In this document: positions 38,575 to 62,329 of the stretch, in pieces
How positions within the stretch are numbered: the first letter of the stretch is position 1
How the letters are laid out: every line of letters begins with the position of its first letter
NCBI GenBank assembly: GCA_028279685.1
Contig: JANQNG010000002.1
Location: 11,922-75,921, forward strand
DNA from: Candidatus Nanoarchaeia archaeon
GTDB taxonomy: Archaea > Nanobdellota > Nanobdellia > Woesearchaeales > SKIA01
DNA: 64,000 nucleotides
Direction: 5' to 3'
Program-made: the position numbers and the translations under genes
Notes under the pieces: generated by a model
Database searches by the model: none
Told to the model about the DNA's origin: nothing
What the model saw: only the letters and a program-made list of their open reading frames with translations

Positions 38575-38700
38575 CCATACCTCTCACAGCCTCTAAAAAT
38601 AGGAATTGAAGCTAGTTTATATCTCTGCTTTTCTATCGCTTTCTATGTTTATAAAATTTACTACTTTTTAGTAGTTTCTTAATTATTTTCCATATAGAAT

Positions 38701-39501
38701 TTATAATATGTTTTTCACATCGTAAATAGATGGTACGCGAATAACATTCTCCTGTTCTGGATATTCATCTGTAGAAATATGAATTACGTTCATACCAAGA
38801 GAGGTTGCAGGGACAACATCGCTATGATATAAGTCACCAACATAGACAATCTCTGAAGGATGTGCTCCAGTGATTTCAAGAATTTTTTCAAATGGTTCTA
38901 ATGATGGTTTTTTATCTTTAACAACTTCTGAACAAATAACAAGAAATGGTGTGTCTGTTTTCATATGAAATGCAGAAAGCGGTATTGCAAGTGCATTGGT
39001 TACTTTTTCAACGGTAGAAAATACTTCTGATGTCATAATACCTAATTGATATTTATCGTCGAGATATTCTACTAAACCACACAACTCTTTATCTTCTGCA
39101 AGTATTGATGCAAAATCAGTATTACCCACAAGTCTTGCTACAAATCCAGCATCAGTATCAAAAATATTAGTGAATAATTTTCCATTCGAATGATATTGTT
39201 CAAGAAGATTATCATAATGCATTTTCATTTCTTCAGGAAATGATGCAATCGCTTCTAGTAAAGTATTATTTTGAATATGTTCTTTGTATTCTTGTATTAC
39301 TTCATTAGCTAATGCTTCAGGATCAGGAATACCTTCTTCTCTTGCTTTTGAGAAAGCAGAATATCTAAAGAACTCATGAGAATTCTGCACCGTACCTCTA
39401 CCAGGAATGTATTCTCTCTTCTTCCCATACAATGTACCATCAACATCAAAAATAACATATTTGATATTTTTCCAATTCATATGCACACCAATGTTCTCCA
39501 T
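38701..39501 (-). CDS. HAD-superfamily hydrolase/phosphatase
   Basis: Motif I FDVDGTLY, a distal VYVGD motif and a cap domain. It is embedded between kinase genes. Confidence 0.7.
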   Translation of the reverse strand: MENIGVHMNWKNIKYVIFDVDGTLYGKKREYIPGRGTVQNSHEFFRYSAFSKAREEGIPDPEALANEVIQEYKEHIQNNTLLEAIASFPEEMKMHYDNLLEQYHSNGKLFTNIFDTDAGFVARLVGNTDFASILAEDKELCGLVEYLDDKYQLGIMTSEVFSTVEKVTNALAIPLSAFHMKTDTPFLVICSEVVKDKKPSLEPFEKILEITGAHPSEIVYVGDLYHSDVVPATSLGMNVIHISTDEYPEQENVIRVPSIYDVKNIL

Positions 39502-39543
39502 TTTATAAAGTTTTCCATTTTTATTCCTGATTGGTAGTAATAA

Positions 39544-43979: not shown

Positions 43980-43991
43980 TCAACATACCCC

Positions 43992-46694
43992 TCAATCATT
44001 ATTTTTGAACGGACCGCTCATATCAAATATCTTCCCCCTGCAACTATTGTTAGTTTCATCAGATTCTCTATAATTATTATCAGAATCTACTATAAAACAA
44101 AAAGACAATAAAGCATTGCCATGCTTTTCATAATATTGTTTAACTTTATCAAATGGAACATACGGTCCTAGATACATTTGATCTTTATTTCCAGGTTCTA
44201 AGGAAATCTTACTATCCAACATTAAATCTATTTCAGGAATCCCAAATTTTATCGGAATATTTTCTAAATAATATGGACTATCATTGTAAAAATTAGCTCT
44301 AACTTGATACATAAAATGCTCTTCTCCAGATCTACTAGGACTAAAAGTCTCATAACTGTATGGATCTGCCCTTAAATCAATAGGTTCATCAGAAACATTT
44401 AATCCACCTACACACACCTCACTTTTCCTACCATCACTTACAGAAAAAACAACATGATAATAACCATTATGCTGAGAATTTGGGGTAAATGTAAACTTCT
44501 TCCCTTGACTAATCACTCTCGTACTATCTGTTAATAAAGTGACATTCGAACCTAAGGAAATATGCTCTTCAAAAACATCTTCTCCTTCTTCTTTCTCTTG
44601 AAGAACAACCCATTTATAATACAACGAATCACCATCCAGATCTTCGACATTAGCTGCAAAATTTATTGGAACTCCTATTGGAACATCAGGATAAGGATCT
44701 CCTTTAAAGAAACGTTCAGGAAATACAGTAATAATACTTGGAGAATAATTACCTTTAACTAAAACATTCCATTCTTGAGTCGATTCAAATACACCATCAT
44801 TTACCACACACTTTACTCTGTGGTTACCAGGATCAATAACCTGAAAATCTAGTTTTACCCTGTCTTTATCATTTGAAAGAGGAACATTATCAAGAAACCA
44901 AGAAAATGAAACATCATCTCTTGATATAAGATCAACCAGAGAAAAATATGCTTCGTCACCTTTTCCAAATTTATGTTTAAGCCTATATGGTCTAAGCTCA
45001 TCTTTTACATCTACCTTAAATTCAACAGGTTTATCTTTCTCTGAAGTCTCAAAAAACCTTTTTTCAGGTTTATATGCATCAATACGAGGAGCTCTATTTT
45101 CATATGATATAAAAATTATTTTCGTATAAATATCTGCTAATCTATCTGAAACAGTTCTTGTCGAAGAAGTATCAGTTTCCATCTGTGCATTTCGTATAAA
45201 ATAAACAATCTCATCATTTTCCTGTCTTTTCTTAAAATCAAATGAGAATCCATATACATAATGACTGCTTTTATCTCTTCTAAGAAACTCAGCCTCTTGC
45301 TTCTTCTTAAGAACACCATTCAATATCCAATAACACGTAGCTCCTTCAAGATTAGCAGAAGTAATTAAAATTTCAGGAAGATCATCTGCCAAACAATACA
45401 TTGGCTGTTCAAATGTTTTTACTGCTTTATTTCGCTCATTTCTTAAAGCCAAATTAGTCGTATCGCTTTGATCATCCCAAATCCATTTAACATAAGAAGT
45501 GTCAGCTCCTCCTTCTATTATAAAATTTTCACCACCATCATTAAAATAAGATTCAAAAGTAGGATATTTATTTCTAAACTCTAGAGCATCTTCAATCCAA
45601 CCTCGTTCATTAGCACGCCATTTTTCATATTCTTTAATTATTCTATTTCCTTCAAATCTTCTCCAAGAAGCATCTCCTGTCAAAAACAAGCCATACAATG
45701 CTGCTGAGCCCAGAAGTATATAAGCAGGAATCTTAATTTTATTCCAAACAGCTTTTCCTATCTTTCCAAAGTTTATTTTTTTTAACTTTCTTCGAAAGCG
45801 ACGTACTTTTCCAAAATCTCTTCCCAACTCACCAACACTTTGAAATCGCTCATCAGGGTCGTAGCGAAGACATTTTCTTAATATTCTTTGAATTCTTTTA
45901 TTTTTTATTCCTTCAAGCTTTCTCTCTAAACTATCATAACTCTTAGGATTATTCAAAACATCTTTCATTTCAGATTTCTTCTCGCATTGGAAAGGGCGTT
46001 CTCTCAGGCAAAGTTCATACAACAACACTCCTAACGACCAAACCTCTGAACGCGCATCAAATTTACCATCAAGCGTTTCAGGTGCTTGATATTCTCTATC
46101 ACCAGAATAGTCTCCTGTAATATCATCACCCATAGCAATACCATAATCAACAACCTTCACCAAACCAGATTTTTCAAGCATAATATTCTCTGGTTTAATA
46201 TCCCTATGAAAGAATCCAGCATGATGAATAGCAGCTACTCCTTTAGTAGTTTGCGAAAATATTGAAACAATCTCACCAAGAGATAATTCCTTCTTTCGCT
46301 CTTGCAAAGAAAGAAGTGTCTCTCCACGAATAATATCAAACAATAAACCATCTACCTTTCTTTCCCTTTCTATCCCATCATTCTCTTCAACAATAGTAAT
46401 ATCATTAATATTTGCTCTATAATTTGCAAGATTAGGATGTTTCAGCATTGAAAGCACATAACCTGTTCTTGATTCAACTTGAGAAAGATCTATTCCTTCT
46501 TTTCTCCTAACTCCTTCAAGCATACGATACGCATTTGAACTATCTCTCAAAGGATTTCCTGGAATAATTTTTAGAGCAAAGATATTATCTTTATTCTTAT
46601 CATCCTGAACTTCAAAGTAATTTCCCGTAGCACCTTCTCCTAATCTCTCAATAACATTATATCCAGGTGCTTCCACGGAAATAATTCTAATCAT
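43992..46694 (-). CDS. transmembrane receptor-like Ser/Thr protein kinase with a large extracytoplasmic beta-rich (Ig/PKD-like) domain
   Basis: N-terminal canonical kinase: GEGATGNYF (Gly loop), ALKII (VAIK Lys), HRDIKPENIML, VVDYG (DFG) and APETL (APE). A single TM helix lies at ~aa 323-341, followed by an ~550-aa extracellular region. Confidence 0.85.
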   Translation of the reverse strand: MIRIISVEAPGYNVIERLGEGATGNYFEVQDDKNKDNIFALKIIPGNPLRDSSNAYRMLEGVRRKEGIDLSQVESRTGYVLSMLKHPNLANYRANINDITIVEENDGIERERKVDGLLFDIIRGETLLSLQERKKELSLGEIVSIFSQTTKGVAAIHHAGFFHRDIKPENIMLEKSGLVKVVDYGIAMGDDITGDYSGDREYQAPETLDGKFDARSEVWSLGVLLYELCLRERPFQCEKKSEMKDVLNNPKSYDSLERKLEGIKNKRIQRILRKCLRYDPDERFQSVGELGRDFGKVRRFRRKLKKINFGKIGKAVWNKIKIPAYILLGSAALYGLFLTGDASWRRFEGNRIIKEYEKWRANERGWIEDALEFRNKYPTFESYFNDGGENFIIEGGADTSYVKWIWDDQSDTTNLALRNERNKAVKTFEQPMYCLADDLPEILITSANLEGATCYWILNGVLKKKQEAEFLRRDKSSHYVYGFSFDFKKRQENDEIVYFIRNAQMETDTSSTRTVSDRLADIYTKIIFISYENRAPRIDAYKPEKRFFETSEKDKPVEFKVDVKDELRPYRLKHKFGKGDEAYFSLVDLISRDDVSFSWFLDNVPLSNDKDRVKLDFQVIDPGNHRVKCVVNDGVFESTQEWNVLVKGNYSPSIITVFPERFFKGDPYPDVPIGVPINFAANVEDLDGDSLYYKWVVLQEKEEGEDVFEEHISLGSNVTLLTDSTRVISQGKKFTFTPNSQHNGYYHVVFSVSDGRKSEVCVGGLNVSDEPIDLRADPYSYETFSPSRSGEEHFMYQVRANFYNDSPYYLENIPIKFGIPEIDLMLDSKISLEPGNKDQMYLGPYVPFDKVKQYYEKHGNALLSFCFIVDSDNNYRESDETNNSCRGKIFDMSGPFKNND

Positions 46695-46790: not shown

Positions 46791-47225
46791 TCAAATCACA
46801 AACCCTTCTCGCTTGATTTCATCGAGAATGAAGATCTCGTTGAGACTCGTAATATTAAACTGCTGCAAGGCATCTTTAAAGCCACCCATCTCTTTCATAT
46901 CCTTAAAAATACATTCAGCATAGAAATCATATCCATCCACCAGCGAAGACAACGTATTCACATGCAGACATTCCGAAAGATACTTCTTCAACTGTTCTTT
47001 CTTTTCTGCTTTAATAGCAAAATTGACCTTCACTGAAAAACCAATCTTCTCATAATCTAGCAACGAAACATGCTTTACAATCACATCACCTTCAAGTGCT
47101 TTCATCCTGTTGAATAATGTTGAGACAGGAACATCTATTTCTTTTGAAATCTGCGCGAGACTCTTCCTTGAATCATCACGTAAATGTTTCAATAATGCTT
47201 TTTCGCTCGACGTTATAACAACCAT
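46791..47225 (-). CDS. lrp: Lrp/AsnC-family transcriptional regulator
   Basis: HTH (EKALLKHLRDDSRKSLAQISKEIDVPVSTLFNRMKALE) plus a RAM domain; 144 aa. Confidence 0.8.
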   Translation of the reverse strand: MVVITSSEKALLKHLRDDSRKSLAQISKEIDVPVSTLFNRMKALEGDVIVKHVSLLDYEKIGFSVKVNFAIKAEKKEQLKKYLSECLHVNTLSSLVDGYDFYAECIFKDMKEMGGFKDALQQFNITSLNEIFILDEIKREGFVI

Positions 47226-47269: not shown

Positions 47270-47308
47270 TGATTTTCTGAAAATCTTCTGGATAAATCAG
47301 GAAAATCA
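47270..47308. promoter_or_regulatory. inverted repeat TGATTTTCTGA...TCAGGAAAATCA upstream of the Lrp promoter
   Basis: Seen directly. A minus-strand TATA-like ACATATAAAG (47252-47260) lies about 30 nt upstream of the Lrp start at 47225. Confidence 0.3.
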
Positions 47309-48493
47309 TCTTCTTAGGACATATTTGTTATTTTTCGGACGAGGAGATACAATTTTCTTTTCCCCTCTTGCTGTCTTCATATACATACTTTCATTCATTT
47401 CAATGCGAGGTATTCTATTCTTATTACAATAACCGAAGTTTGCTGAATAAGCAATCCCTTCCCATGCATGAAAACTAGCATCATAATACTCTAATACAAG
47501 CTCCCATTTCTCTAATGCCTCTTGAGAAATAATCTTACTCTGTCCTTCAGGTAAACTTCCTCCTGGAAACGCAAATATATCACTAATTCTTGAAGGATCA
47601 TCAACGCAACTCTCTAATGCGTTCTTCGTCATTTCAAATTCTTTTCTGATCTGTTCAGGCGATGCATGCTCTAGTCGTACATGGTGATAAGTATGATGTC
47701 CTATATTGAACCCCATATCAAGCAGTTGATTAATCTTCATAGCACCAAATCCTTCCTGGCAAAAAGGTTCTTCATATGATCCATTGAATGCTTTATCGTT
47801 ATTAGCAAAATCTATGAAGAAAATCCCTTTCAATCCCCAATCTGGATGCTTTTTATTGAATTCCTTCATAAGAGAGACAGCACAATGTTCATCAAGCATA
47901 GGCTCTCCTGACTCCTCATAAAGAGGCTCATCTCCGTTAATGATATACTCCATCTGTCCTCTATTAGCATCATCAAAGGTTAAAAGAATTGGTCTTGTTC
48001 CTTCAGGAAGATCATAACTATTGGTGATAAACTCTTCATAACTAATTGGTCTAAATCCATATCGATAATAGGTTTCAAGATGATTCCAAAAGCTTTCCGG
48101 ACTTGTTGTGTAATTATCACCATGATGATCATCAATGACATGATACATCGGAATAGGAATGGTTGTTATGTTCGGATTGCGTTGAGATGTAATCACCATA
48201 GAAGGCGTTTTCCGATGAATAGGATCTTGTCTTAATTTCCAAGCCCATTGGAAATCAATAAATTCCTGATAATCAACAGGATTGATAGTGCAGACCACTT
48301 GCGTATCCGAGGAAGCATACAATGTAGAATCAATCATTGGACGGACAATCTCAACATAGAAAGACTTGTTGGAAAATAATTTTTCTTGAACATCGTTATT
48401 GTGAATAGTAGCATCGTGAGCAAATAAAGTTGTTGTACCTAACACAAACGCCAGTGCTGCTCCAAAGATTCCTTTTTTTATTACATTCATCAT
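47306..48493 (-). CDS. secreted polysaccharide deacetylase (NodB homology/CE4 family)
   Basis: Signal peptide; LLTFDDA (TFDDG motif), HHTYHH His motif. Confidence 0.75.
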   Translation of the reverse strand: MMNVIKKGIFGAALAFVLGTTTLFAHDATIHNNDVQEKLFSNKSFYVEIVRPMIDSTLYASSDTQVVCTINPVDYQEFIDFQWAWKLRQDPIHRKTPSMVITSQRNPNITTIPIPMYHVIDDHHGDNYTTSPESFWNHLETYYRYGFRPISYEEFITNSYDLPEGTRPILLTFDDANRGQMEYIINGDEPLYEESGEPMLDEHCAVSLMKEFNKKHPDWGLKGIFFIDFANNDKAFNGSYEEPFCQEGFGAMKINQLLDMGFNIGHHTYHHVRLEHASPEQIRKEFEMTKNALESCVDDPSRISDIFAFPGGSLPEGQSKIISQEALEKWELVLEYYDASFHAWEGIAYSANFGYCNKNRIPRIEMNESMYMKTARGEKKIVSPRPKNNKYVLRR

Positions 48494-49374
48494 AATGTAT
48501 TCACTTGAAGATATTGTTTATGTTCTATAAGCTCAGGAGGCATCCTGATACGCTCTTTCTTGTATGGTGTAAAATTAGAAGGATCTCCACTCTTTGTTCT
48601 TCTCTTCTTATAGACTTTGTTGAATTTGCTATTGAACTCAAAGATATCATCATAATATTCTTCATCGCCTGCAACTTTTTTTGCAATAGCTCTGAGCGAC
48701 TCCTTACCAGTTGCCTCATAATATTCTCGAGGAATATAATCTTCAAGCGATTTCTTTTCTCCCGAAGTAAAACTATATTGCACAACCTCTGACTTGTTTT
48801 TCACTATGTCGGAAGGGATCCTTAGTATCTGCGCTTTCTCAATCACATTAGATTTCAGTTTATTGTGATCATAGATTCTTTTCCAAAGACTTCCATCTCC
48901 TGATATTTTCTTTGCAATCATAACAAGATATTCATCAGGCTGCACAACATAGAGATGTTCTTTCCTTGCTGTGTTGATAGGAATTGCAGGTGCTATCTCT
49001 TTTGGAGAAGGCTTCTTTGTCGTTTGCATGGGAACAGTATTTTGTTTCTCTTCTTTTTTTCTCAATAAAGTATACTCTCCCTTAAGACGCTTATGCTCAT
49101 CCTTGATGCTGTCTTTCTCAGCCTTCAAACGATCATACTTTGCCTGAACTTCCTTTGCACGTTGTTTCTCAATTTGATATTCCGTCAGATAAGTCCTTGT
49201 AGTCTGTACAACTTCTTTCTCATCAAATTTATTATTGATCCATATTCCTCCTGTGACTCCTCCTGCAATCAGCAAAGCAGTCATAACTACTCTTCCAAAA
49301 CGCCTCTTTTTCTGTCTAGAACCCATCCTATTTCCAGGACTTTCATGAGGTTTATTATCTGCGAAGAATCTCAT
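48490..49374 (-). CDS. membrane-anchored LysM-domain protein with a coiled-coil
   Basis: TM helix VMTALLIAGGVTGGIWI, a coiled-coil, and LysM-like YVVQPDEYLVMIAKKISGDGSLWKRIYDHNKL...ILRIP. Confidence 0.55.
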   Translation of the reverse strand: MRFFADNKPHESPGNRMGSRQKKRRFGRVVMTALLIAGGVTGGIWINNKFDEKEVVQTTRTYLTEYQIEKQRAKEVQAKYDRLKAEKDSIKDEHKRLKGEYTLLRKKEEKQNTVPMQTTKKPSPKEIAPAIPINTARKEHLYVVQPDEYLVMIAKKISGDGSLWKRIYDHNKLKSNVIEKAQILRIPSDIVKNKSEVVQYSFTSGEKKSLEDYIPREYYEATGKESLRAIAKKVAGDEEYYDDIFEFNSKFNKVYKKRRTKSGDPSNFTPYKKERIRMPPELIEHKQYLQVNTL

Positions 49375-50627
49375 ACTACCACCTTCTCATACATAGCATC
49401 AATATGTTTACTTAGTTTCTTTTCTGTCATATTCGGTATGTTTTTTGATAGAAAAAAAGGTTTAATGTATTCTATCTCTTTTTGCAGACTACGCACTGTT
49501 TGATAAGCTGCATCAATAGTAAAACAAACATCAAACTCAGTTGAATTTCTTTCACTTTCAAAAGATTTTGACACATCACATCTAGAAAAATCATGAAAAT
49601 GCTCTTTAAAATATGCTATTTCTCTTTTCATTTTGTTATGCATCATTCCCACTTTCGAATCATAAGGTGAAGCAATAAGATAATCATTTACTGTACGAAT
49701 AAACGTTCTTAGTTTCGATATATACTGTCTGGTATTTTCTAATGCGCTTTGAAGGTCAGTACAACTGTTCTTTTGATCCTTGTATAATCTCTCTCTATAT
49801 TGTTCTGTTCGAGGATCATGAAAGTTTATTATTCTATATGCTGCTTCGAGAACTTTTTCAGCAGGATTTAATAACTCATACGAAGCACATAATTCTTGTT
49901 GTCTTTCGATGAAATCTTTAATTTCATTAACTAATACTTTACTAGTGATGTTAGATATAGATGTCTTCGCACTCATCATTCTATTATAATTCTCGCCAAG
50001 TGATGTTGATTCTGTTGTTTCCATCACAACTTCTTTTTTGGCAGAATCATCAGTAACCCATTTTACTCTTTCTAGAGATATAGATACTTTTTCCGCTCTT
50101 TTTTTGAGTAACGCAATCATGCTCTCCTCAGGACATATATTAGAAGCTATCACATCCTCAATAGTATCTTTATCAATATTATCGATGAATGCATCTATCA
50201 TCAGTATTGCTTTAAGATCATGAATATCAGAAGCGTTCTTGATAAGTGATCTGGCCATTGTACTATTAATCATACTCGAATATTGAGATCCTGCAATATG
50301 AGATTCTATATTGGAAATAGATATATTCTTTTTTCTCTTTGATAATGAATTTCCATTTCGTCTATTTGCAGCATAAGTAAATAAATCAAGAAGATGTTTG
50401 TTATTCGCAAAAAGTATATTCGAAGGTATTTTTTTTTGATCACTTATTCTCTTAAAATAATCGCAAGCGACAGCATTTCGCAGATTATGTGCTCCCACGT
50501 GGCGATGTCTTGATAATTCTGGAGCAAAATAACTTAAAAATAAAGAAGATCCGAGAGGAAGGCTATGATTTACTTCTGCTTTTCTTTCTACTGCTCCTAT
50601 AATATGTGCAATTGTCATAATCATCAC
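49371..50627 (-). CDS. hypothetical protein
   Basis: 418 aa ORF whose stop and start overlap its neighbours (operonic). Confidence 0.5.
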   Translation of the reverse strand: MMIMTIAHIIGAVERKAEVNHSLPLGSSLFLSYFAPELSRHRHVGAHNLRNAVACDYFKRISDQKKIPSNILFANNKHLLDLFTYAANRRNGNSLSKRKKNISISNIESHIAGSQYSSMINSTMARSLIKNASDIHDLKAILMIDAFIDNIDKDTIEDVIASNICPEESMIALLKKRAEKVSISLERVKWVTDDSAKKEVVMETTESTSLGENYNRMMSAKTSISNITSKVLVNEIKDFIERQQELCASYELLNPAEKVLEAAYRIINFHDPRTEQYRERLYKDQKNSCTDLQSALENTRQYISKLRTFIRTVNDYLIASPYDSKVGMMHNKMKREIAYFKEHFHDFSRCDVSKSFESERNSTEFDVCFTIDAAYQTVRSLQKEIEYIKPFFLSKNIPNMTEKKLSKHIDAMYEKVVV

Positions 50628-51334
50628 TCTTTGATTTGTAATTCAACTATGCCATTAATCTTATGTAGTGCATTAAGTCCATCTTTCTTGATATCGATAT
50701 TATGTGCATTGAATACTTCATCAACCATTGTTATTCTTTCTTTTACACTATCACATAATCCGTTCACATCACTATAAGCGGGATGAATACGAAGAAGATA
50801 GTCACACAACACCACCATGTGATGCTCTTCAGCAGAGATCTTTTCTAAGTACTTATCAAATGAAAGCTGAACATATTTGTGAATAACATTCTCTGCCATC
50901 TCCTGTTCAATTGATTTCATAGGCTGCCTTCCGCCACGCTGTACTCTTCTGATAAAATTATTGAGCTTCTTTGAGCATGATTGAGCAACATAAGCTGCCC
51001 AATAAGAGGGAGATATGTGTTGTTCCAGAAAATCATAGAGCTGCTTATCTCCATACTCCTGAGCATAGACATCAGACATGAGTAATACTGCTGTGTTCTT
51101 TGAAAAATCAATTTTATCTACATCCAAATGCTTAAGATAATATTTTGATAATAGATGTTCCTCTAATGTAAGCCCCTCTTCTGAGCACTTCTTCGTTGGT
51201 TCAGCTATAATGCCTTGTTCGAAAGATATCTTTCTTTGATAAACACCTCTAGGAATTCTTTTTCCTTTACCCTGTACTTTAATATTATGAGATCTTGCTT
51301 TCAGTAGCTGTCTTACATCAACCATAGCTTTCAC
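50624..51334 (-). CDS. hypothetical protein
   Basis: 236 aa ORF; overlaps both neighbours. Confidence 0.5.
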   Translation of the reverse strand: MKAMVDVRQLLKARSHNIKVQGKGKRIPRGVYQRKISFEQGIIAEPTKKCSEEGLTLEEHLLSKYYLKHLDVDKIDFSKNTAVLLMSDVYAQEYGDKQLYDFLEQHISPSYWAAYVAQSCSKKLNNFIRRVQRGGRQPMKSIEQEMAENVIHKYVQLSFDKYLEKISAEEHHMVVLCDYLLRIHPAYSDVNGLCDSVKERITMVDEVFNAHNIDIKKDGLNALHKINGIVELQIKE

Positions 51335-52628
51335 TCGATTTAGTTTTTTTAATACCTTTACCTGATTTTTTCGAAATCTTTCCGGATTTCTTCATAATTC
51401 GTCTAATTTTCTTCAATTTAGTTGCATGTTTTTTCTTTGCATATCTGTTCTTACTAAGAATATTTTTCAATTCATTTCTAGTATCTTTCGTTATCTCATC
51501 AAATTCCTCTTTATGCTGCTTGTAAATTTCTTTCATTGCTTCAATACGCTTATCCCATCTCCATATCCTCGTGCCTCTTTCCACATAATCACCTTTTTTT
51601 ATATCTCCGACATTACCACGATATTCTCCTGCAAGTATTTTTGAGACTATTCCAAGCACTCTCTCTCCTTTATTCTCTGACTGTTGTAATTTTTGATAAT
51701 ACTTTGTAATCAATGAACGATATCTTCTCTTTGGTATTTGTTCTTCAGAAAAGGTTTTCTCTTTCAGCACATTCTTCGTCTTAATTTTTGTTTCTAGATC
51801 ATCACCAACTTGCTTTTTTGAATCATCATCATTTTTTCCAACAACTTGATATTCTCCCAGTCTTTTTCCATCTCTACCAATAATCACTCTTTCTTTCAAT
51901 TGAGTCACAATATCTTCTTTTTCCTCATCATCTGGAGTAAAATGACCTTCTTCTATGATATTCAAAGGAATATGTTCATAGCGATTTCTTATTGCTATTC
52001 TCTCTCCTTCTTGAATTTGAGGATACGCTATATTCATTGTCGCATATGGTGTGTCATTATGTTGGTTCATCACAAGACCGTAAGTATACTCAAGATAATA
52101 TTGTTCGCCATCCTCCTGCTCAACAGGAATATCTTTGAACATCCTATAATCAGTAAGAAAATTTTCAAATGTTCTGACATCCCTGCCAGAGAAAAAATTA
52201 GAAAATTTTCCATGAGAATGAGCCCATCCTGCAATTCGTTTATTGAGATTATGTTTAATATCTCTCTCTGATGTAATAGCACCTCCCCCTGATATTGTAC
52301 AATATCCTGGATAGACCGTCTGATCATGTGCAATATACGCATCATTGATAACAGGTTTTCCTTCTCTAACTGTATCTTTCTCCGCAAGAAGATAAATTGC
52401 CATTTCATGCGAAGGTAAATGAGCCTCTTGAGTTATATTCCCAAATGCACTAATAATATGTTCAAGTTTTTCTTTCGCATAAGCTGTTATATTAATTCCT
52501 TCAGCAGCAAAAGCATTAGCATGCTCTCTTATTTCAGCATTTTCCTCATCAACAGTAGTATATCCAAGCATTATTTCACCTTCTTGCATTACGTTCAACA
52601 TAGATTCGTTGAGGTAATTCCGTAGCAT
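51318..52628 (-). CDS. JAB/MPN (JAMM) metalloprotease-domain protein with a long C-terminal extension and Lys-rich tail
   Basis: Complete JAMM motif: E (SHEMAIYLL) ... HSHGKFSNFFSGRD (HxHx7Sx2D). The C-terminus is KKKHATKLKKIRRIMKKSGKISKKSGKGIKK. Confidence 0.75.
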   Translation of the reverse strand: MLRNYLNESMLNVMQEGEIMLGYTTVDEENAEIREHANAFAAEGINITAYAKEKLEHIISAFGNITQEAHLPSHEMAIYLLAEKDTVREGKPVINDAYIAHDQTVYPGYCTISGGGAITSERDIKHNLNKRIAGWAHSHGKFSNFFSGRDVRTFENFLTDYRMFKDIPVEQEDGEQYYLEYTYGLVMNQHNDTPYATMNIAYPQIQEGERIAIRNRYEHIPLNIIEEGHFTPDDEEKEDIVTQLKERVIIGRDGKRLGEYQVVGKNDDDSKKQVGDDLETKIKTKNVLKEKTFSEEQIPKRRYRSLITKYYQKLQQSENKGERVLGIVSKILAGEYRGNVGDIKKGDYVERGTRIWRWDKRIEAMKEIYKQHKEEFDEITKDTRNELKNILSKNRYAKKKHATKLKKIRRIMKKSGKISKKSGKGIKKTKSSESYG

Positions 52629-54057
52629 AACTCATAGGACCATCAATGACATTTTTCATTGAATTATAATCAAGTACATGAATCATCTCTCCAACCATGG
52701 CTGCAGCGATAATTTCATTAGACATTACTACACTAGGATTAGGACCATCGCAAATATTTCCCCCTTCTGGAAAACCTTCAAGATCTAGTTGATCTCCTAT
52801 TGAAGAAGTTACACCAGGTATATAGACAGCAACTTGCCCTGCTTTTGGATGTGTTCCTCCATCTATATAAGGTACGTTGTGTTTTTTAGTGAATGTATTC
52901 ATCCAAATTCTTGCATGCTTATTATCTACACATCCAAGCACCACATCATATTGCTTTTTAGTAAGTTCCTTTTCAGAAATTAATTTTATATTCTCTCTCT
53001 TATCTTCTCTAGAAAGCACATCTCCTAATTTTCCATTATAGACATCTGATTTTATCTTATGATCTATATTGCGAACACGCATAGAAAGCACTTCAGCCTT
53101 ATTGTGTCCGATGAAATTTCTCAATTCTGTCTGTCTATTAAGATTTTTGTGTTCTGCAACATCATAATCAACAAAATCAATCCTGCCAATTCCAAGATAG
53201 CGTAAATAAATCGAAGCCCAATTTCCTAATGCTCCCGCACCAACCACCAGCACATTATTCTTTCTATAAGTCGGAAGATTATTCTTTCTTAGATTAGATT
53301 TTAATCCTTTTCTATTCTTACTATATAAGTTATAGATAAGACGATGATTACTTGGAAGATGAGCATCATCATCGTTATACTTAAATGCATATTTCCTCAC
53401 TTCTTCAACAGCTATACCAGAAACAATTCCACTTGTAAAGCCTCCTTGATCCTTTCCATTGAATTCCTCATGTACAAGAGCATCAAGATCAGGATTCTCT
53501 TTAAGCACATTTACTCTTCCTTTATTCTTTGGCCAATAGCAAGCAATAGCGCTTCTATCTTCATCTGATGATAACGAAATAACAGGTATAGGGTTGTTCT
53601 TTCTCCTAAATGCGTAGCGAAGCACTTTTTCTTTCGAAACAACTTCATTTGTAGCATCGATAAGTATATCTGGGTTAAACCCCATGATAAACGCTTCAGC
53701 AAATCTACCATGTCTTTTGATCGTTGGAGGTGTATGGTCAATTTGATGTAATGCCTCAAAAACCATATCACTCTGCTTTTTTCCTGCAATTTTTTCTCTC
53801 TTTCCATAGAGAAATCCTTTGTCTTTTGAAGTAACTGAACGTGAATTATCAAAATAATAAATATTCCTAACACCTAAACCATAAAGTGATGCAAGCACCA
53901 TTTGCCCAAGCAAATTAGTACCCACTACAGCCACTTTTAGCTTATTTACCATCTCCTGCCTTTCATTACCCAGCATACCATCTCCGAATGCAACACTATT
54001 ACAAACATGAATTTCAGAAACCGCATCTACGTCACCCATTCGCATCGACCCCCACAA
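52576..54057 (-). CDS. E1-like (ThiF/MoeB/UBA-family) activating enzyme with two tandem Rossmann/adenylation-like domains
   Basis: The C-terminal active-type domain has VLVVGAGALGNWASIYLRYLGIGRIDFVDYDVAEHKNLNRQ. The N-terminal degenerate domain has VAVVGTNLLGQMVLASLYGLGVRNIYYFDN. Its start overlaps the upstream JAB gene. Confidence 0.75.
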   Translation of the reverse strand: MWGSMRMGDVDAVSEIHVCNSVAFGDGMLGNERQEMVNKLKVAVVGTNLLGQMVLASLYGLGVRNIYYFDNSRSVTSKDKGFLYGKREKIAGKKQSDMVFEALHQIDHTPPTIKRHGRFAEAFIMGFNPDILIDATNEVVSKEKVLRYAFRRKNNPIPVISLSSDEDRSAIACYWPKNKGRVNVLKENPDLDALVHEEFNGKDQGGFTSGIVSGIAVEEVRKYAFKYNDDDAHLPSNHRLIYNLYSKNRKGLKSNLRKNNLPTYRKNNVLVVGAGALGNWASIYLRYLGIGRIDFVDYDVAEHKNLNRQTELRNFIGHNKAEVLSMRVRNIDHKIKSDVYNGKLGDVLSREDKRENIKLISEKELTKKQYDVVLGCVDNKHARIWMNTFTKKHNVPYIDGGTHPKAGQVAVYIPGVTSSIGDQLDLEGFPEGGNICDGPNPSVVMSNEIIAAAMVGEMIHVLDYNSMKNVIDGPMSYATELPQRIYVERNARR

Positions 54058-55388
54058 CCATTATTGTAATATTCTCTTTCATATGTTTTGATAAGATTTA
54101 GCATAGACTCACAAACATCTCTTTTCTGCTCGAGTTTCTTAATTCCGATCACCCAACCAGGAAATACATTATTACTTATCCTTCCATTAATCAAATCATG
54201 AACATCATCAATATATTTTTTCTTTGGCACTAATACATCTAATAATTCATTGAATCTTGTATCAAGAATTGAAGTCTGTTTATTGCGGTGGTCTTTATCA
54301 GACATAATGACGGTTTGTGCATCACATATAACACCATAGACTTCCTCTATTGGATTAAAAGAATTAACCCCTTTGATATTATTAAAATTATGAGAAACAA
54401 TATTTGTTGCTTCATGAATTCTTTTATAGATCGAGTCATAAGTACTATTAAAAAAATCTAATTGTTTTTTCTTATGAGAATTTGTCTTTGCAAATTTATC
54501 TTCTTCTACATACAACGTTCTTTCTCTATTGAAAATTCCTGCTGGAATACCTTTTTTCTTGACCAGATTTTTATCTCTAGTAACAATTATGCGTTCTCTA
54601 ATCTGATTGACCCTTGATTTAATCTGCTGATCAATATCTTCTGTTTTAATACAAGGCACTTGCTCTTCTTCGATCTCTTCAAAAGGAACATTTTCAATTA
54701 GTGTAATTCCATTTCCCTTAGAGTAGCCAATTACTGTAAATGGCCTATCATTATCAGCATTGAATACCATTCCATATGTGTATTGCACCTCTGCAGAACC
54801 GTAAGACATAACTGTTAAAGGATGATTCTTTACCTTCTTAAGATCGAACTTATCAAAAAAACTGGAACGAACCATCTTCTGTTTATTTGGTTCCACTTGA
54901 AGATACGTTTTCCCCTTGTGTTTTACAAAACGCACATCGTCTTCTTTTTCAGTTTCTTGCATTTCAACATCAAGAAACATCTTATTGTCTTCGAGAAAAT
55001 AATTGAATGTTTTTCTATCTCTTTTTGAAAAGAAAGTGGAAATATCCCCATGCGAATGCCCCCATCCAACAACACGCATTCTTAGATTATTCTTGATATC
55101 CCTCATAGAAGTAATCAACCCATCACCTGATATAATACAATAATCAGGATACGCCTCTTGATCATGGGCAATATAGACATCACTAATAAGAGGTCTGTTC
55201 TTTTTTGCTTCTTCTTTTGTAGCAAGCATCAAAAATCCTATCTCATATGTTGGCAGACTTAAAGAAGAACAAATTGCTTTCACTCTTCGTGCAATAAGCT
55301 CACTTTTCATTTTTGCACGAGAAGTAATCCTGATAGGCGAGATCATGCTTTCAATCTTTTTATCTAATGTTGTCTCCCTCATTTTCAA
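54027..55388 (-). CDS. JAB/MPN (JAMM) metalloprotease-domain protein, paralog of 51318..52628
   Basis: VVGWGHSHGDISTFFSKRD is a perfect HxHx7Sx2D. It shares the context DVYIAHDQEAYPDYCIISGDG with DAYIAHDQTVYPGYCTISGGG in the paralog. Confidence 0.75.
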   Translation of the reverse strand: MKMRETTLDKKIESMISPIRITSRAKMKSELIARRVKAICSSLSLPTYEIGFLMLATKEEAKKNRPLISDVYIAHDQEAYPDYCIISGDGLITSMRDIKNNLRMRVVGWGHSHGDISTFFSKRDRKTFNYFLEDNKMFLDVEMQETEKEDDVRFVKHKGKTYLQVEPNKQKMVRSSFFDKFDLKKVKNHPLTVMSYGSAEVQYTYGMVFNADNDRPFTVIGYSKGNGITLIENVPFEEIEEEQVPCIKTEDIDQQIKSRVNQIRERIIVTRDKNLVKKKGIPAGIFNRERTLYVEEDKFAKTNSHKKKQLDFFNSTYDSIYKRIHEATNIVSHNFNNIKGVNSFNPIEEVYGVICDAQTVIMSDKDHRNKQTSILDTRFNELLDVLVPKKKYIDDVHDLINGRISNNVFPGWVIGIKKLEQKRDVCESMLNLIKTYEREYYNNGCGGRCEWVT

Positions 55389-56695
55389 TTCTTAAAGATT
55401 CTTTCCTCAGATATACCATGTTTTTTTGCATAGTCTTTTGCATCATCCTCATTTAACGCAATAGGAGTATAATTAGAGATGCTATGCACAGGAGTCAGCG
55501 TATTACCAATATATCCTGTTGTAATATTTCCTGTTGCTTCCCAGAGCATAAGTGCAACTCTTCGTGCTAATCCTTTATCTTTTATAGAATACTTATGAAG
55601 AAACTTAACATTAAGGTAAGACCATCTTTCCGCACCTGCAAAACAAATTCTTCCACTTGGATAGACAAAAGGATGATTATATGGCATATCACGTAATGTC
55701 GGCTCATTCTTAATAGTAACATATCTATCAGTAATATCTAGTGTTGTACCTACTCGAACACGTTTACTTCCTTCTTTTCCTTCTTCATTGAATGCATAAT
55801 ATTTCCCATCCTTCTCAAGCAAATAAGGCTCAATCTCTGCATAGAACAAATACTCATTATTGCCTCTAGGTTCATATCTTATATTACCTACTTTCTTTCG
55901 AGTTTTTTTTACTTTTTTTTTAGAAATATTTGCATCAATTTCTTTTTCTTTTTTATACAATAATAAAATTTGATTCTTAAATTTTTTACCATGTTGCAAC
56001 GCAACTTGTTCTACATCTGCACGAAGACGCAATCTATATTCATCTGCTAGCTTCTGAAGAGGCATTAATGGCTTAAGCGAATAATCTGTTCCTTTGAATG
56101 TTAAAGTTCCGTTTCTTCTAGCTTTAGAAGAAATAAGTTCATAACATGTACCAGCAATAGTCACAATACCTGGACGAGGAATTAAATCATAAATACGCGT
56201 TTCTATGTTATGTAAGTCATCTAATGCAGGATAACTATTTATTGCTGTATCGATCTTAGGATCTTCAATAACAACTTCCTTCTTTTTTTCTCTTTGATAA
56301 TTATAAATCTTAAAAACATCTTGAATAAACCTATCAAGAGATTGCTCTTTCATAGAACCATAGTAATTTATTTTTTTCGAAACTTGTGAGGATAGTTCTT
56401 TGAGTCTTCTAATAAGTTTAAAATCAATAACCCAACTCATATACTCCTTAAGATCATCTTCATTATCTTTGAATAATTCTCTCTGAAAAAGAGAAAGCTC
56501 ATCAGACTCAAAGAGAGGATATTGCTCCTTAAGATATTTCCATGCATTACCATTTGCTGAAGGAGTATTCCTTTCAATAGTATAGATACGAGAATCTAAC
56601 AACGCAAATGTTTCTCCAGACATCATGAACTTATCTAATATTGTTGGAGCTAAACAAATCTCTTTTTTCATAATACCCCCTCTACAAAAAAGCAC
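55385..56695 (-). CDS. large protein with a C-terminal ubiquitin-conjugating-enzyme (E2/UBC)-like domain
   Basis: MPYNHPFVYPSGRICFAGAERWSY matches the UBC active-site signature HPN[IV]xxxGxIC[LF]xxLxxxW, including the catalytic Cys. The N-terminal ~300 aa has no assignable domain. Confidence 0.5.
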   Translation of the reverse strand: MLFCRGGIMKKEICLAPTILDKFMMSGETFALLDSRIYTIERNTPSANGNAWKYLKEQYPLFESDELSLFQRELFKDNEDDLKEYMSWVIDFKLIRRLKELSSQVSKKINYYGSMKEQSLDRFIQDVFKIYNYQREKKKEVVIEDPKIDTAINSYPALDDLHNIETRIYDLIPRPGIVTIAGTCYELISSKARRNGTLTFKGTDYSLKPLMPLQKLADEYRLRLRADVEQVALQHGKKFKNQILLLYKKEKEIDANISKKKVKKTRKKVGNIRYEPRGNNEYLFYAEIEPYLLEKDGKYYAFNEEGKEGSKRVRVGTTLDITDRYVTIKNEPTLRDMPYNHPFVYPSGRICFAGAERWSYLNVKFLHKYSIKDKGLARRVALMLWEATGNITTGYIGNTLTPVHSISNYTPIALNEDDAKDYAKKHGISEERIFKN

Positions 56696-56704
56696 ATAAC
56701 ATGC

Positions 56705-57184
56705 CTAATCACAGAGCTTGTCCTCAAGGTTCACATACGCTGATGTTCCTCCAGGCACACTTCTTCTGGCAATAAAATCAATCAATTTATACTTCTCTTT
56801 AGCGTTGGTTTCAGAATCAATTTCTTCCTTTGTTCTAATAATCGAATCATATTCAGCAACTCGACCATCTAAATCCAAAGGTATTGGTTCTCCATTATCA
56901 ACTATTGCCTTGATCGAGACCTTGTAGTTATCAGGATCCGCATTCATATCTCTGAACCATTTACTCACTGTATTTGCTACATCTCTTTCTTCCGCATTGT
57001 ACGCTTCATTCAATGCATCTGCTTCTGGATCGATAAGTTTTCTAATCAAATCCTCCACAGTTCCTTCAAGATAAGTCTGTTCAACTTTCTTCACCAGTAA
57101 GACACCCTCATCATTGTCCTTTATCGGGACCATAGCATCAAGAGTGACATATATTGGCTTGTCATCCATAATATCAACCTCCAA
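56705..57184 (-). CDS. small acidic protein; candidate ubiquitin-like modifier precursor (internal Gly-Gly followed by a 13-aa tail)
   Basis: The ORF is robust: 159 aa, the first gene after a hairpin+T8 element, immediately upstream of the E2-like gene. The Ubl call itself is inferential. It rests on the ...ARRSVPGG|TSAYVNLEDKLCD C-terminus and beta-strand-like segments (KPIYVTL, YKVSIKAIV). Confidence 0.3.
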   Translation of the reverse strand: MEVDIMDDKPIYVTLDAMVPIKDNDEGVLLVKKVEQTYLEGTVEDLIRKLIDPEADALNEAYNAEERDVANTVSKWFRDMNADPDNYKVSIKAIVDNGEPIPLDLDGRVAEYDSIIRTKEEIDSETNAKEKYKLIDFIARRSVPGGTSAYVNLEDKLCD

Positions 57185-57266: not shown

Positions 57267-58211
57267 TTACATTCTATATTTCTTTCCTTGTGCAATATGC
57301 ATTAAGCGTCTTCCTATGAGTCTATTGAAATCATGCATATTCTCAAAATCAGGATGATCAAAGAATTTCCGGTCAATAACTCCGTATCTCCCATCACAAT
57401 CACATTCAATCACATAATTGTTTCTCTCGTGATCCTGTACAATATCAACCACACCAATATCAAATCCAACAGCATCTGCAGCCTGCAAAGCAATCCTCCT
57501 GAGATCTTCTGATGGCTCCATAAACACATAATGCGCTCCTCTAGCGATATTGATAATAGCTTCGCCAGGAGTATTAACATGTTCCTTTTCTCGTATGGTT
57601 CCAAAAGGCACCTCGTCTCCTAGCACATACATTCTCAATACACTTTTGTTAAAATCCCCATTATCTCCTATATATTCTTGCAGAAGATAAGGAGCAGCAA
57701 TAACAGAATCACCTATCTCAACATATCTTTCCTTTTCTACAATATCATATTTTCCTTCGTTATTATAAGCTACATAATTACCATGCTCCTTCATCAATAC
57801 AAAATGCTTATTTCCTGCACAATCATAAGGATACTTCAGCATAGCAATATCTCTTGTACTCATGAAAACATCTATCGCCCTCTTATTAGAGCAAAGCTCA
57901 AAGAAAGGATGGGAAATGTTGTTCTTCTTGAATAACTCATTAGATTTTATTTTATTCATGGCAATCTCTTGAGCACTATATGCGTTTATAATGGGCGTCC
58001 TCTGAGACCACCTCTCAAAATCGAATTTTGGACCGTGCATCATCATATAAGCAACATCATATCCTTCTAGCAGTTCTACATTCCCTTCTGTAAGACGATC
58101 ACATACAAACCCTTCCCTACGTATAGTCTGCTGAAGAGGCTCTACAAAATGTACATCATAATACGTATCTTTCCCCGCAATAATAGCAAATTTCAAACTG
58201 ATCCCCTCCAT
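57267..58211 (-). CDS. ATP-grasp amidoligase (RimK/glutathione-synthetase-like)
   Basis: MLKYPYDCAGNKHFVLMKEHGNY, LLQEYIGDNG...LRMYVLGDEV, and VGFDIGVVDIV...YVIECDCDG (ATP-grasp C-terminal VLEVN-type motif). Confidence 0.6.
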   Translation of the reverse strand: MEGISLKFAIIAGKDTYYDVHFVEPLQQTIRREGFVCDRLTEGNVELLEGYDVAYMMMHGPKFDFERWSQRTPIINAYSAQEIAMNKIKSNELFKKNNISHPFFELCSNKRAIDVFMSTRDIAMLKYPYDCAGNKHFVLMKEHGNYVAYNNEGKYDIVEKERYVEIGDSVIAAPYLLQEYIGDNGDFNKSVLRMYVLGDEVPFGTIREKEHVNTPGEAIINIARGAHYVFMEPSEDLRRIALQAADAVGFDIGVVDIVQDHERNNYVIECDCDGRYGVIDRKFFDHPDFENMHDFNRLIGRRLMHIAQGKKYRM

Positions 58212-58852
58212 TCTTCATACCAATGACTCGCCTCTCCATCAAGCAATACTTTTACTTCTTTATGTTTGACATCATACGTGTGATAAGCAGGATCAATAAA
58301 AAGATCTCCTGGTTCAAGATCAACCCAAGCACATGCGTGTTTTACATTTCTTCCAAAACAATCTACTTTTACACTAGTGTAATGACTTGTTAATCCTACT
58401 GTTCTTGCCATAACAACATACAAGTAAGCCATCTCTCCACAAACACCTTCACGATCACGCATTACCTCTTCTGCATTCTTATATCCATTGGTTCTCATTG
58501 ATTTTCCATAATCTATATTATTCTGCATCCAATCAAAAATACTTCTTGCTTTCTCTTGTAATGTAGAAAGTTGTATTACTTCTTTCTTTAGAAAGTTAGC
58601 AGCATTCACAGGCATGCCAAAAGGACTCTGTATGGTATCATCAACAATAAGCACTCTGTAATTACTGTTGATCTTGCTTAAGTCAAGAGTAGTATCTATC
58701 TGTTTCCTTTTCTTGAGCTTAAACCGAATATGAGATGTATCATCACAATAAGGATTAACCTGCGTTCTTCTTTTTTTCAGCGATTCTCTGATAGTACTAT
58801 CATTGTGCATTCTTCCATGAAGCTTTCGCTTAATAAGTACATTAAGAGTCAT
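58193..58852 (-). CDS. transglutaminase-like cysteine peptidase-fold protein
   Basis: GVCGEMAYLYVVMARTVGL (catalytic Cys context of the transglutaminase-like core), with downstream His/Asp candidates (HACAWVDLEPGDLFIDP). Confidence 0.6.
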   Translation of the reverse strand: MTLNVLIKRKLHGRMHNDSTIRESLKKRRTQVNPYCDDTSHIRFKLKKRKQIDTTLDLSKINSNYRVLIVDDTIQSPFGMPVNAANFLKKEVIQLSTLQEKARSIFDWMQNNIDYGKSMRTNGYKNAEEVMRDREGVCGEMAYLYVVMARTVGLTSHYTSVKVDCFGRNVKHACAWVDLEPGDLFIDPAYHTYDVKHKEVKVLLDGEASHWYEEWRGSV

Positions 58853-58861
58853 ATATTCTCC

Positions 58862-59923
58862 TCATGAAAGATATCTCATCGAATCTGTGAGATTTGCTCT
58901 CTGGACATCTCCTAAGAGCTGTGCCATCACAGCATTCTGTCTATCAGCAGCATCTAACCCTGGATGTGACTGTATAGTATCTCTTATATTTTCCAATGCG
59001 GAACTATAGCTCGCATTAAGATCGTCCTGATATTGTTGGAGCATACCAATACCTGTTGAAACTATACTCATCATATCTGAAAGTTCTACAACAGGCTCTA
59101 CTGATCCTGCAAGATCATCAAGATGTTCTTGATAAAATGAAGTGAGTGTTGACATTCTCTGTGCACCTTCAATAACAGCAGCAAATAATCGTTCAGAGAG
59201 CCATATATTCCAAATACGCTGCCTAATATGAGTAACGCTCATCGCTGAATTAAAAAACTCTCCTGTCGTATCACTTTTCTCTCTCACTACTTTCATATAT
59301 TGTTGAAGCGCATCACTATGTTTTTCGGGATCAGCATCCGGATCCAACCCTTGTAACGTTTCCTGAAGCGATTTCTCATTATACACTTGTTTAGGAACTT
59401 CCTCTTCAAGAAATTTTTTTCTCAAAGTCTCATCTCTGTTTTCAGGAATAAGCGTATCTAATGTTCCTTTTACCTCATCAAGCTTGCTTGAATATGACTC
59501 AACCATCGAATCAAGAATTGAATTTAATTGTCGCACTCTTTCCTGCTGTTCAGGGAAAATTTGATGTAAATCACGGCGATTTATGGGTTGTCTTACTATT
59601 TTATCAGCAAAATAATATTTAACATCAAGCATAGTTTTTTTCAATGGTCTTGCTTCTCTGTATTCAACATATCTTTCAAGTTCTTGCTGTCCTTTATCTA
59701 TCCCTTTAATAATATAATTAACATCTTCCATTCGAGGATTAACATTAACTGCTGTTGAACCCCCTAAGTAAGGGAGCACATCAGTTCTTGTTCGACCTAT
59801 TCTCATAGGATCTCCTGTCTGATTTCTTGGACTTGTTTGCGTTCTTGTTGTAAGAGAATTATCTTTTGTATTAACAACTACTTTTCTTCTTAATTTAAGA
59901 CTATCTTTTATTGAATCGACCAT
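58862..59923 (-). CDS. hypothetical alpha-helical acidic protein (possible Alpha-E-like partner of ATP-grasp/TGase systems)
   Basis: 353 aa from the first ATG (the ORF track starts at GTG 59932). It leads the three-gene group and is preceded by a TATA-like ATATAAAA and an AAAGGTGG ribosome-binding site. Confidence 0.45.
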   Translation of the reverse strand: MVDSIKDSLKLRRKVVVNTKDNSLTTRTQTSPRNQTGDPMRIGRTRTDVLPYLGGSTAVNVNPRMEDVNYIIKGIDKGQQELERYVEYREARPLKKTMLDVKYYFADKIVRQPINRRDLHQIFPEQQERVRQLNSILDSMVESYSSKLDEVKGTLDTLIPENRDETLRKKFLEEEVPKQVYNEKSLQETLQGLDPDADPEKHSDALQQYMKVVREKSDTTGEFFNSAMSVTHIRQRIWNIWLSERLFAAVIEGAQRMSTLTSFYQEHLDDLAGSVEPVVELSDMMSIVSTGIGMLQQYQDDLNASYSSALENIRDTIQSHPGLDAADRQNAVMAQLLGDVQRANLTDSMRYLS

Positions 59924-59989
59924 AGCAACCACCTTTTATTTAAATTAAACATAATATCAACGATCAAAACTATTTTATATGTCTTCGCT

Positions 59990-61846: not shown

Positions 61847-62329
61847 TCACAATGATTCTTTTGCTGTTTCCATCAAATTAAACAACATAATATCAGTCAT
61901 GAACGCTTCTTTCTTGATATCGTCAACAATATAATAGATTTGCGTTGATTCTATCTTAAATGCATCCTCTAATGATTCTTTGAACGCCTCCATATCTTTG
62001 ATCTGCTTGAAAACACCCTCAACAAGAAAATCATAGCCGTTATTAATCTGATACATGCTATTCACCGAAGGATGCTTGAAGAGATGCTTCTGCAGGTTCT
62101 TTCTATCTTCTCTATTGACTTTAATGAAGAGCTGTGCTTTTGCATGAAACCCAAGCTTAGAGAAATCAACAAGGCTGGTGTGCTTTGTGATAATATTTTC
62201 TTCATGTTGTTTCATTCTATCAAAGATAGTTGAGACAGGTATCCCTGTCTTTTTACTCATCTTAGTCAGTGCAATTCGTGCATTTGATCTCAATTGTGCC
62301 AGTATTTTCAGATCGTTTTGATTCACCAA
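61847..62329 (-). CDS. lrp: Lrp/AsnC-family transcriptional regulator (paralog of 34887..35363)
   Basis: HTH_AsnC plus RAM domain; 160 aa. Confidence 0.85.
   Translation of the reverse strand: MVNQNDLKILAQLRSNARIALTKMSKKTGIPVSTIFDRMKQHEENIITKHTSLVDFSKLGFHAKAQLFIKVNREDRKNLQKHLFKHPSVNSMYQINNGYDFLVEGVFKQIKDMEAFKESLEDAFKIESTQIYYIVDDIKKEAFMTDIMLFNLMETAKESL

Follow-up and report, generated by a model that had tools for sequence, protein, structure and literature searches.

A probable new family of E2-like proteins in a Bil-like operon of DPANN archaea

A stretch of 64,000 nucleotides from the genome of a Candidatus Nanoarchaeia archaeon (contig JANQNG010000002.1, positions 11,922 to 75,921; hereafter the window, in whose coordinates all its genes are given) carries a minus-strand gene for a protein of about 430 residues. 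We take this protein as the first example of an as yet unannotated E2-like family, encoded in a Bil-like operon for the conjugation of a ubiquitin-like protein (Ubl) in DPANN archaea. With a probability that we put at roughly 0.78, it is a highly divergent, catalytically competent carrier of the E2 type, i.e. with a ubiquitin-conjugating (UBC) fold, in a self-contained Ubl conjugation operon of a DPANN (Woesearchaeota/Nanoarchaeota-type) chromosome. We regard it as a real and probably catalytic E2-like enzyme of a new, previously unnamed family. The E2-like reading of the original prediction is upheld, although its statements on where the motif lies, on the Asn and on what the N-terminal region is need correction.

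The open reading frame (ORF) at 55385..56695 is real and encodes 436 amino acids (aa) from a GTG start at 56695, while public gene calls for the identical protein (P0001) start at an ATG at 56671 and give 428 aa, the version that is used throughout for residue numbering. The exact string on which the prediction had been based, HPFVYPSGRICFAGAERW, was located at 55675..55622 on the minus strand. It lies in the C-terminal quarter of the protein, not at the C-terminus as had been stated, since another 78 residues follow it. The protein and its parts are as follows.

55385..56671, minus strand: E2-like protein with three modules, 428 aa (ATG at 56671) or 436 aa (GTG at 56695)
56671-56288, minus strand: N module, residues 1-128
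56194-55904, minus strand: M module, residues 160-256
55987-55388, minus strand: UBC-like C-terminal domain, about residues 229-428
55622..55675, minus strand: active-site motif HPFVYPSGRICFAGAERW, residues 333-350 (428-aa numbering) or 341-358 (436-aa numbering)
55675-55673, minus strand: His333 of the motif
55645-55643, minus strand: Cys343, predicted to be catalytic
55624-55622, minus strand: Trp350 of the motif

Of the E2 consensus to which the motif had been likened, the His-Pro pair, the Cys at a spacing of 10 residues and the downstream Trp are present, but the Asn of HPN is replaced by Phe. The spacing from His to Cys is that of canonical E2s, e.g. UbcH5 with H75 and C85. Across all six reading frames of the window there is one occurrence of the pattern HP.[IV].{5}[IVL]C, against 0.13 expected from residue shuffles, and none of 300 shuffles matched the E2-core pattern extended by the downstream aromatic residue and Trp. 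The motif is not a product of chance, and conservation is a stronger argument for this than the shuffle test.

The extent of the family became visible only when 1.84 billion cluster representatives were searched exhaustively with an HMMER profile, as a word-indexed homologue search had returned just four proteins. At E<=1e-3 the family comprises 232 clusters (formed at 50% identity) and at E<=1e-10 still 139, none of the 232 carrying a name or being covered by any Pfam, NCBIfam or PADLOC model. Most members have 410-445 aa and a few possess additional N-terminal extensions. Others of about 180-250 aa match only profile positions ~250-433, and the C-terminal module can therefore stand alone. 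Conservation, counted in 153 representatives with pairwise identities of at most 50%, is concentrated around the motif: Tyr331 is kept in 127/143, His333 in 138/143, Pro334 in 133/143, Val336 in 114/143, Ile342 in 113/142 and Cys343 in 131/142. Phe335 takes the place of the HPN Asn in 126 of 143 representatives, the remainder having Leu, His or Tyr, and position 350 is aromatic in most (66 Trp and 25 Phe among 133). Further conserved residues, Gly386-Tyr387 and Pro394-Val395, lie downstream of the long helix that follows the motif. The string VYPSG in the window protein looks like Ubc9 but falls into variable columns of the family alignment, i.e. this resemblance is coincidental.

The catalytic position is not occupied by Cys in all members. 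At one locus (L008, Ca. Woesearchaeota JAFCDD010000026, 4530-6311), a 415-aa E2-like gene has directly behind it a second, partial copy of the C-terminal domain (177 aa) in which Asp replaces the Cys (NGSIDYDGG); this copy may be a UEV-like inactive paralogue or an assembly artefact. The Cys is absent from a few other members too, such as P0082 with Ala. In the long member P0064, found outside the window, residues 273-363 matched the PIF1-helicase model of Pfam (30.1 bits, gathering score 25.9); this is probably compositional noise, the match falling in the Lys-rich helical M module.

Comparison with known E2s gave scores that are individually marginal but highly specific and that fall at the right residues. 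The window protein has no match in Pfam, PADLOC or NCBIfam scans. Comparison with UQ_con and other E2 families had been proposed along with the original prediction, and no curated E2 model of Pfam matched significantly: none of 130 aligned members hit an E2-clan model (UQ_con, Prok-E2_A-E, UEV, UFC1, RWD) at E<=0.01, and the isolated C-terminal domains of 10 divergent members had no E2-clan match even at E<=10. A single long member reached E 0.006 with UEV, below threshold. When the 130-sequence profile was run against all PDB sequences, however, 20 of the 21 matches at E<=10 were genuine E2s, with UBE2A/B and Rad6 at about 0.02-0.2 and Ubc9 at about 1. The family profile kgpPrVln.kpYkHPFVysdgsICygg.skrwk aligns in register with the catalytic-Cys region of UBE2A, Rad6 and Ubc9. 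The same core was aligned by HHalign in local mode between the C-terminal domain profile and seven canonical E2s (P 7e-4), while the N and M modules gave P of about 0.3 against the same seven. We used only the local result, as the global/greedy mode yielded a meaningless terminal alignment. Picornavirus VP1 and aminotransferases, which had appeared in a PDB profile search with a shallow alignment of four sequences, were noise and disappeared with the deep profile.

An initial AlphaFold2 model from four sequences was too weak (mean predicted local distance difference test score, pLDDT, 66) and was superseded by one from the 130-sequence alignment, with a pLDDT of 93.9 and a predicted template modelling score of 0.73. 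In this model the C-terminal domain starts with a helix (229-254) and continues with a beta-meander (strands between 264 and 320), the Tyr-x-His-Pro-Phe-Val loop and Cys343, followed by a short helix (348-352) that contains Trp350, a long helix (368-385) and a helix at 408-417. The N-terminal helix, antiparallel beta-meander, active-site loop and crossover helix of the UBC alpha/beta fold are thus all present, and the predicted domain has the UBC order of elements plus extra strands, in line with the fold that had been proposed for it. A Foldseek search of the model against the PDB returned nothing at E<=1e-3 and a single E2 at E 0.17. We therefore rate the fold assignment as well supported but not proven, given that the order of elements is UBC-like yet the Foldseek result is non-significant.

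An extra N-terminal region had been recognized in the original prediction as a stretch of about 300 aa with no known function. It is better described as ~255 aa that form an internal tandem duplication. Residues 1-128 and 160-256 are each modelled as a four-stranded meander followed by long helices, and the two modules are homologous (HHalign probability 97.3%, E 2e-11, 82 columns), while HHalign detected no relationship of either to the C-terminal domain or to E2s. They probably act as a docking or target-selection scaffold.

The genomic surroundings place the E2-like gene among putative components of a conjugation pathway. The gene lies in an array on a single strand, with overlaps at gene boundaries; on the minus strand this array reads: a 356-aa helical protein, a transglutaminase-fold protein, an ATP-grasp ligase, a 154-aa Gly-Gly protein, the E2-like protein, JAB-A, E1, JAB-B and five unannotatable ORFs. 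The partner genes are listed here in the order of transcription.

58862..59932, minus strand: helical protein of 356 aa before the transglutaminase gene, weakly conserved across operons
58193..58852, minus strand: transglutaminase-fold (papain-like Cys) protein, 219 aa, Pfam Transglut_core 3.4e-13, GVCGE catalytic-Cys motif at 58447-58433
57267..58211, minus strand: RimK-like ATP-grasp ligase, 314 aa, Pfam RimK 5.6e-10, NCBIfam rimK_fam 4e-12 (below the curated cutoff)
56705..57169, minus strand: candidate Ubl modifier precursor, 154 aa, Pro-Gly-Gly at residues 139-141 (56755-56747), then a 13-residue tail, TSAYVNLEDKLCD
54027..55388, minus strand: JAB-A, 453 aa, a JAMM/MPN+ metallopeptidase whose C-terminus is extended by a long helical stretch, JAMM motif HSHGDISTFFSKRD at 55058-55017
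52576..54057, minus strand: E1-like activating enzyme, 493 aa, a degenerate N-terminal Rossmann half followed by a ThiF adenylation domain
53241-53224, 53145-53131 and 52752-52750, minus strand: E1 motifs GAGALG and NLNRQ, and Cys436 of the crossover loop
51318..52628, minus strand: JAB-B, a second JAMM peptidase of 436 aa and paralogue of JAB-A, JAMM motif HSHGKFSNFFSGRD at 52220-52179

The core of small protein, E2-like protein, JAB, E1 and JAB was present in all loci examined (L002-L007, L010, L011, L013-L015), down to about 25% identity. The order Ubl-E2-JAB-E1 is identical in the window, L002, L006, L010 and L014, while L007 and L013 have no JAB between E2 and E1; a JAB of the JAB-B type follows E1 in all operons examined. 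The gene for the small protein of ~150 aa always lies directly upstream of the E2-like gene. Its terminal Gly is invariant (PGG, VGG, PSG or IEG) and the tail of 1-13 aa behind it is variable, as in Ubl precursors that have to be trimmed; trimming of the BilA tail by BilC has been demonstrated (PMC10557695). This protein matched nothing in Pfam or among PDB sequences and belongs to no detectable family; by analogy it is a candidate modifier with a presumed beta-grasp fold. Both JABs matched the Pfam models Prok-JAB and JAB weakly, below the gathering score. All residues of the JAMM signature E...W-x-H-S-H-G-x6-S-x2-D are nevertheless invariant in seven sequences (both paralogues and orthologues), and the best PDB matches of the JAB profile are Rpn11 (3e-4) and BRCC36. 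E1 matches the Pfam model ThiF (1.7e-42, in two stretches) and has UBA5 (1e-11), MoeB, SAE2, UBA1 and Cap2 as best PDB relatives. Its C-terminal half possesses GxGxxG, NLNRQ, DN and Cys436 just before PSVVMSN, invariant in a seven-sequence alignment, and its sequence is that of a single chain in which an active adenylation domain follows an inactive one, an arrangement shared with BilD and eukaryotic E1s.

The genes upstream of the modifier are less uniform. The transglutaminase-fold gene is a frequent companion (L002, L004, L005, L010, L014). The ATP-grasp gene is variable, being found in the window and L010/L011, while L002 has an unrelated 254-aa protein instead; the latter was considered as a divergent ATP-grasp and rejected, there being no detectable similarity. 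The 356-aa helical protein has no significant family in Pfam or NCBIfam, but its position is filled in L002, L004, L005 and L010 as well, and it matches the 348-aa equivalent of L010 with a pairwise E of 3e-4. These three genes may together form a further module, for peptide tagging or processing, that is coupled to the Ubl pathway. The array is headed by an AsnC/Lrp-type regulator (HTH_24 and AsnC_trans_reg; window 61847-62329, minus strand), with counterparts in L002 (5658-6086) and L004 (843-1271). This gene holds that place in the present genome and in the 46%-identical lineage alike, and is a candidate operon regulator. At the other end, four ORFs with overlapping boundaries follow JAB-B (47306-51334, minus strand), three of them without a family (236, 418 and 294 aa) and the fourth of 395 aa with a polysaccharide deacetylase domain, and a separate 144-aa ORF comes next at 46791-47225. 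These ORFs are also present in the identical contig L001 and are not evidently conserved in more distant operons.

From these components we propose a pathway in which JAB-A or JAB-B would remove the 13-residue tail of the modifier precursor and thereby expose its Gly-Gly end. The single-chain E1 would then adenylate the terminal Gly and take up the modifier as a thioester on Cys436 of its crossover loop. By transthioesterification the modifier would move to Cys343 of the E2-like domain, 10 residues past the start of His-Pro, and thioester formation by the E2-like protein is compatible with its context of an E1 with an invariant Cys436 and a Gly-Gly modifier. The E2-like protein might finally pass the modifier to a target amine without a separate E3, helped by its duplicated N-terminal modules, and a JAMM peptidase could reverse the modification. 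The replacement of Asn by Phe hints that catalysis in the last step may not follow the canonical E2 course. The analysis itself shows the motifs, their conservation, a resemblance in fold and a shared gene arrangement; every chemical step of the pathway is inferred, and so is the division of labour between the two JABs. As to its purpose, the operon could be antiviral or otherwise conflict-related as for bacterial Bil, serve in symbiosis-related conflict, or be regulatory.

Several of the observations above also fit other explanations. The C-terminal domain might be a non-catalytic adaptor similar to UBC, UEV or RWD domains (a pseudo-E2), with E1 alone conjugating the modifier as in SAMP/UbaA. 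E1-only conjugation does exist in archaea, and the NCBIfam SAMP-E1 model matches our E1 at 5e-15, below its cutoff. Such an adaptor would also account for the absence of the HPN Asn, for the lack of Cys in some members and in the extra tandem copy of L008, and for the weak UEV match of one member. It would, however, leave unexplained why 131 of 142 members maintain Cys343, and why His333 and Pro334 are kept at catalytic spacing, when identity is otherwise as low as 20-50%, as purifying selection of this kind is the mark of a catalytic residue. UEV and RWD domains characteristically lack the catalytic Cys (PMC1779556), which is kept here, and we regard a pseudo-E2 as quite improbable. Of similarly low standing, if a little easier to accept, is the view that there is no homology to E2s at all and that His-Pro and Cys are convergent features of another Cys-dependent enzyme, e.g. 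a peptidase or acyl-transferase acting on the modifier or on products of the transglutaminase-fold and ATP-grasp proteins.

Least probable among the alternatives is a pathway for a sulfur carrier or a cofactor, of the ThiS/MoaD-ThiF/MoeB type, with the 428-aa protein as an accessory factor. ThiF and MoeB are indeed the nearest named models for E1, yet all its scores with the ThiF and MoeB equivalogs are far below the cutoffs, and no genes of thiamine or molybdopterin biosynthesis occur in the operon. Small proteins ending in Gly-Gly also act as sulfur carriers (PMC1779556), but conjugation systems are typified by the combination found here of two JAMM peptidases, a C-terminal tail to be processed, a tandem-domain E1 and an E2-like protein with a Cys (PMC10557695). 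A divergent, catalytically competent E2 thus remains our preferred reading of the protein. Going beyond it, the operon might represent an undescribed archaeal tagging system around an E2/E3 hybrid, in which the N-terminal modules select targets and the site with Phe for Asn serves an unusual acceptor or altered chemistry, coupled with the transglutaminase-fold and ATP-grasp proteins as a two-layer tagging and cross-linking pathway, used by DPANN archaea against viruses or at the host-symbiont interface and forming an independent deep archaeal branch of E2s. This extension is speculative and, taken as a whole, rather doubtful.

Among known systems, Bil (BilABCD; '6d', CEHH/'6C') comes closest. 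Its gene order, Ubl-E2-DUB-E1 with a deubiquitinase (DUB) in third place (PMC10557695), is the same as here with a JAB as the DUB. It likewise has a Ubl precursor with a C-terminal extension past the Gly, a single-chain E1 in which an inactive and an active adenylation domain stand in tandem and a catalytic Cys is present, and an E2 with a catalytic Cys, and no E3 gene. On the other hand, Bil is bacterial while the system described here is archaeal (DPANN), and BilB has about 150-200 aa, in contrast to ~430 aa with a duplicated N-terminal module. In the E2s of Bil/6d the upstream His is missing and a conserved His follows the Cys (PMC1779556, PMC10557695), a signature that our family does not share: His333 upstream of the Cys is near-invariant, and a downstream His359 occurs in only 27 of 131 members. 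A second JAB paralogue, the transglutaminase-fold and ATP-grasp genes as frequent companions, and an E2 that matches no PADLOC or Pfam model at the sequence level further set the operon apart from Bil.

The distance to other systems is larger. Compared with canonical eukaryotic and archaeal E2s (UQ_con; Caldiarchaeum, Asgard), the protein has Phe for the HPN Asn, matches below every curated threshold, extra beta-strands in the core, an additional ~17 residues from the Trp to the long helix and the ~255-aa N-terminal extension, and the operon, unlike those of the Caldiarchaeum/Asgard type, comes without canonical ubiquitin, a RING E3 or a proteasome lid context of the Rpn11 type. In type II CBASS, Cap2 is an E2-E1 fusion accompanied by the JAB Cap3 and the modified protein is the cyclase C-terminus, whereas here E1 and E2 are encoded separately, a dedicated small Gly-Gly protein would serve as the modifier and the operon contains no CD-NTase, nucleotidyltransferase or effector family; the PADLOC matches are confined to the E1 part. 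Bub employs oxyester intermediates on Ser (E2) and Tyr (E1) without catalytic Cys and a DUF6527 serine protease (PMC11601596). Bub/6E/DUF6527 is excluded here, as the Cys of both E2 and E1 are conserved, the peptidases are of the JAMM type and there is no DUF6527 domain. Archaeal Ubl conjugation, a ThiF-type E1 and JAMM deconjugation are shared with SAMP/UbaA/HvJAMM1 and Urm1-type systems, but those systems have no E2 and a single-domain homodimeric E1 in place of the Cys-bearing E2-like protein and tandem-domain E1 found here. A 2006 catalogue of prokaryotic E2 operons listed bacterial ones only (PMC1779556), and our literature search found no paper tying DPANN or Woesearchaeota to such an E1/E2/JAB operon.

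The window itself is archaeal chromosome, with genes for AspRS, ArgRS, SecD/F, archaeal Nre and a P-type ATPase, and other loci of the family carry the archaeal markers RpoH/Rpb5_C and SUI1. In a pattern scan with a shallow alignment, relatives in named genomes were limited to one Candidatus Woesearchaeota and one Nanoarchaeota metagenome-assembled genome, and metagenome contigs yielded two; this limited scan found no copy of the E2-like family on viral contigs. PADLOC reported no defence match in the operon besides the E1 domain. Just downstream of the Ubl/E2/E1 array, four successive minus-strand genes (36457-46694; 705, 879, 599 and 900 aa) each encode a eukaryote-type Ser/Thr kinase domain, a density of Pkinase genes that is unusual for a small archaeal genome. 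Neither a tRNA gene nor an Rfam match reaching the gathering score was found in the 64 kb. The guanine-plus-cytosine (GC) content is about 35%, and the GC skew is persistently negative from ~26 kb to 62 kb, in keeping with the extended series of genes on the minus strand.

Outside eukaryotes, complete pathways of E1, E2, Ubl and DUB are at present known in a few archaeal lineages with canonical parts (Caldiarchaeum, Asgard) and in the bacterial Bil, Bub and CBASS systems, alongside which the E2-less archaeal SAMP is listed. The family described here adds a DPANN-archaeal branch that combines the operon layout of Bil with a eukaryote-like HP...C signature and an unusual multi-module E2, and annotation pipelines miss this entire E2-like family. 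Its set of about five genes is a possible reconstitution set for E2 chemistry without the HPN Asn, and it bears equally on E3-independent target choice built into the E2 and on Ubl-based immunity or regulation in ultra-small symbiotic archaea. If the proteins were indeed an independent deep archaeal branch of E2s that kept the His-Pro...Cys arrangement lost in Bil E2s, this would bear on the origin of eukaryotic ubiquitin.

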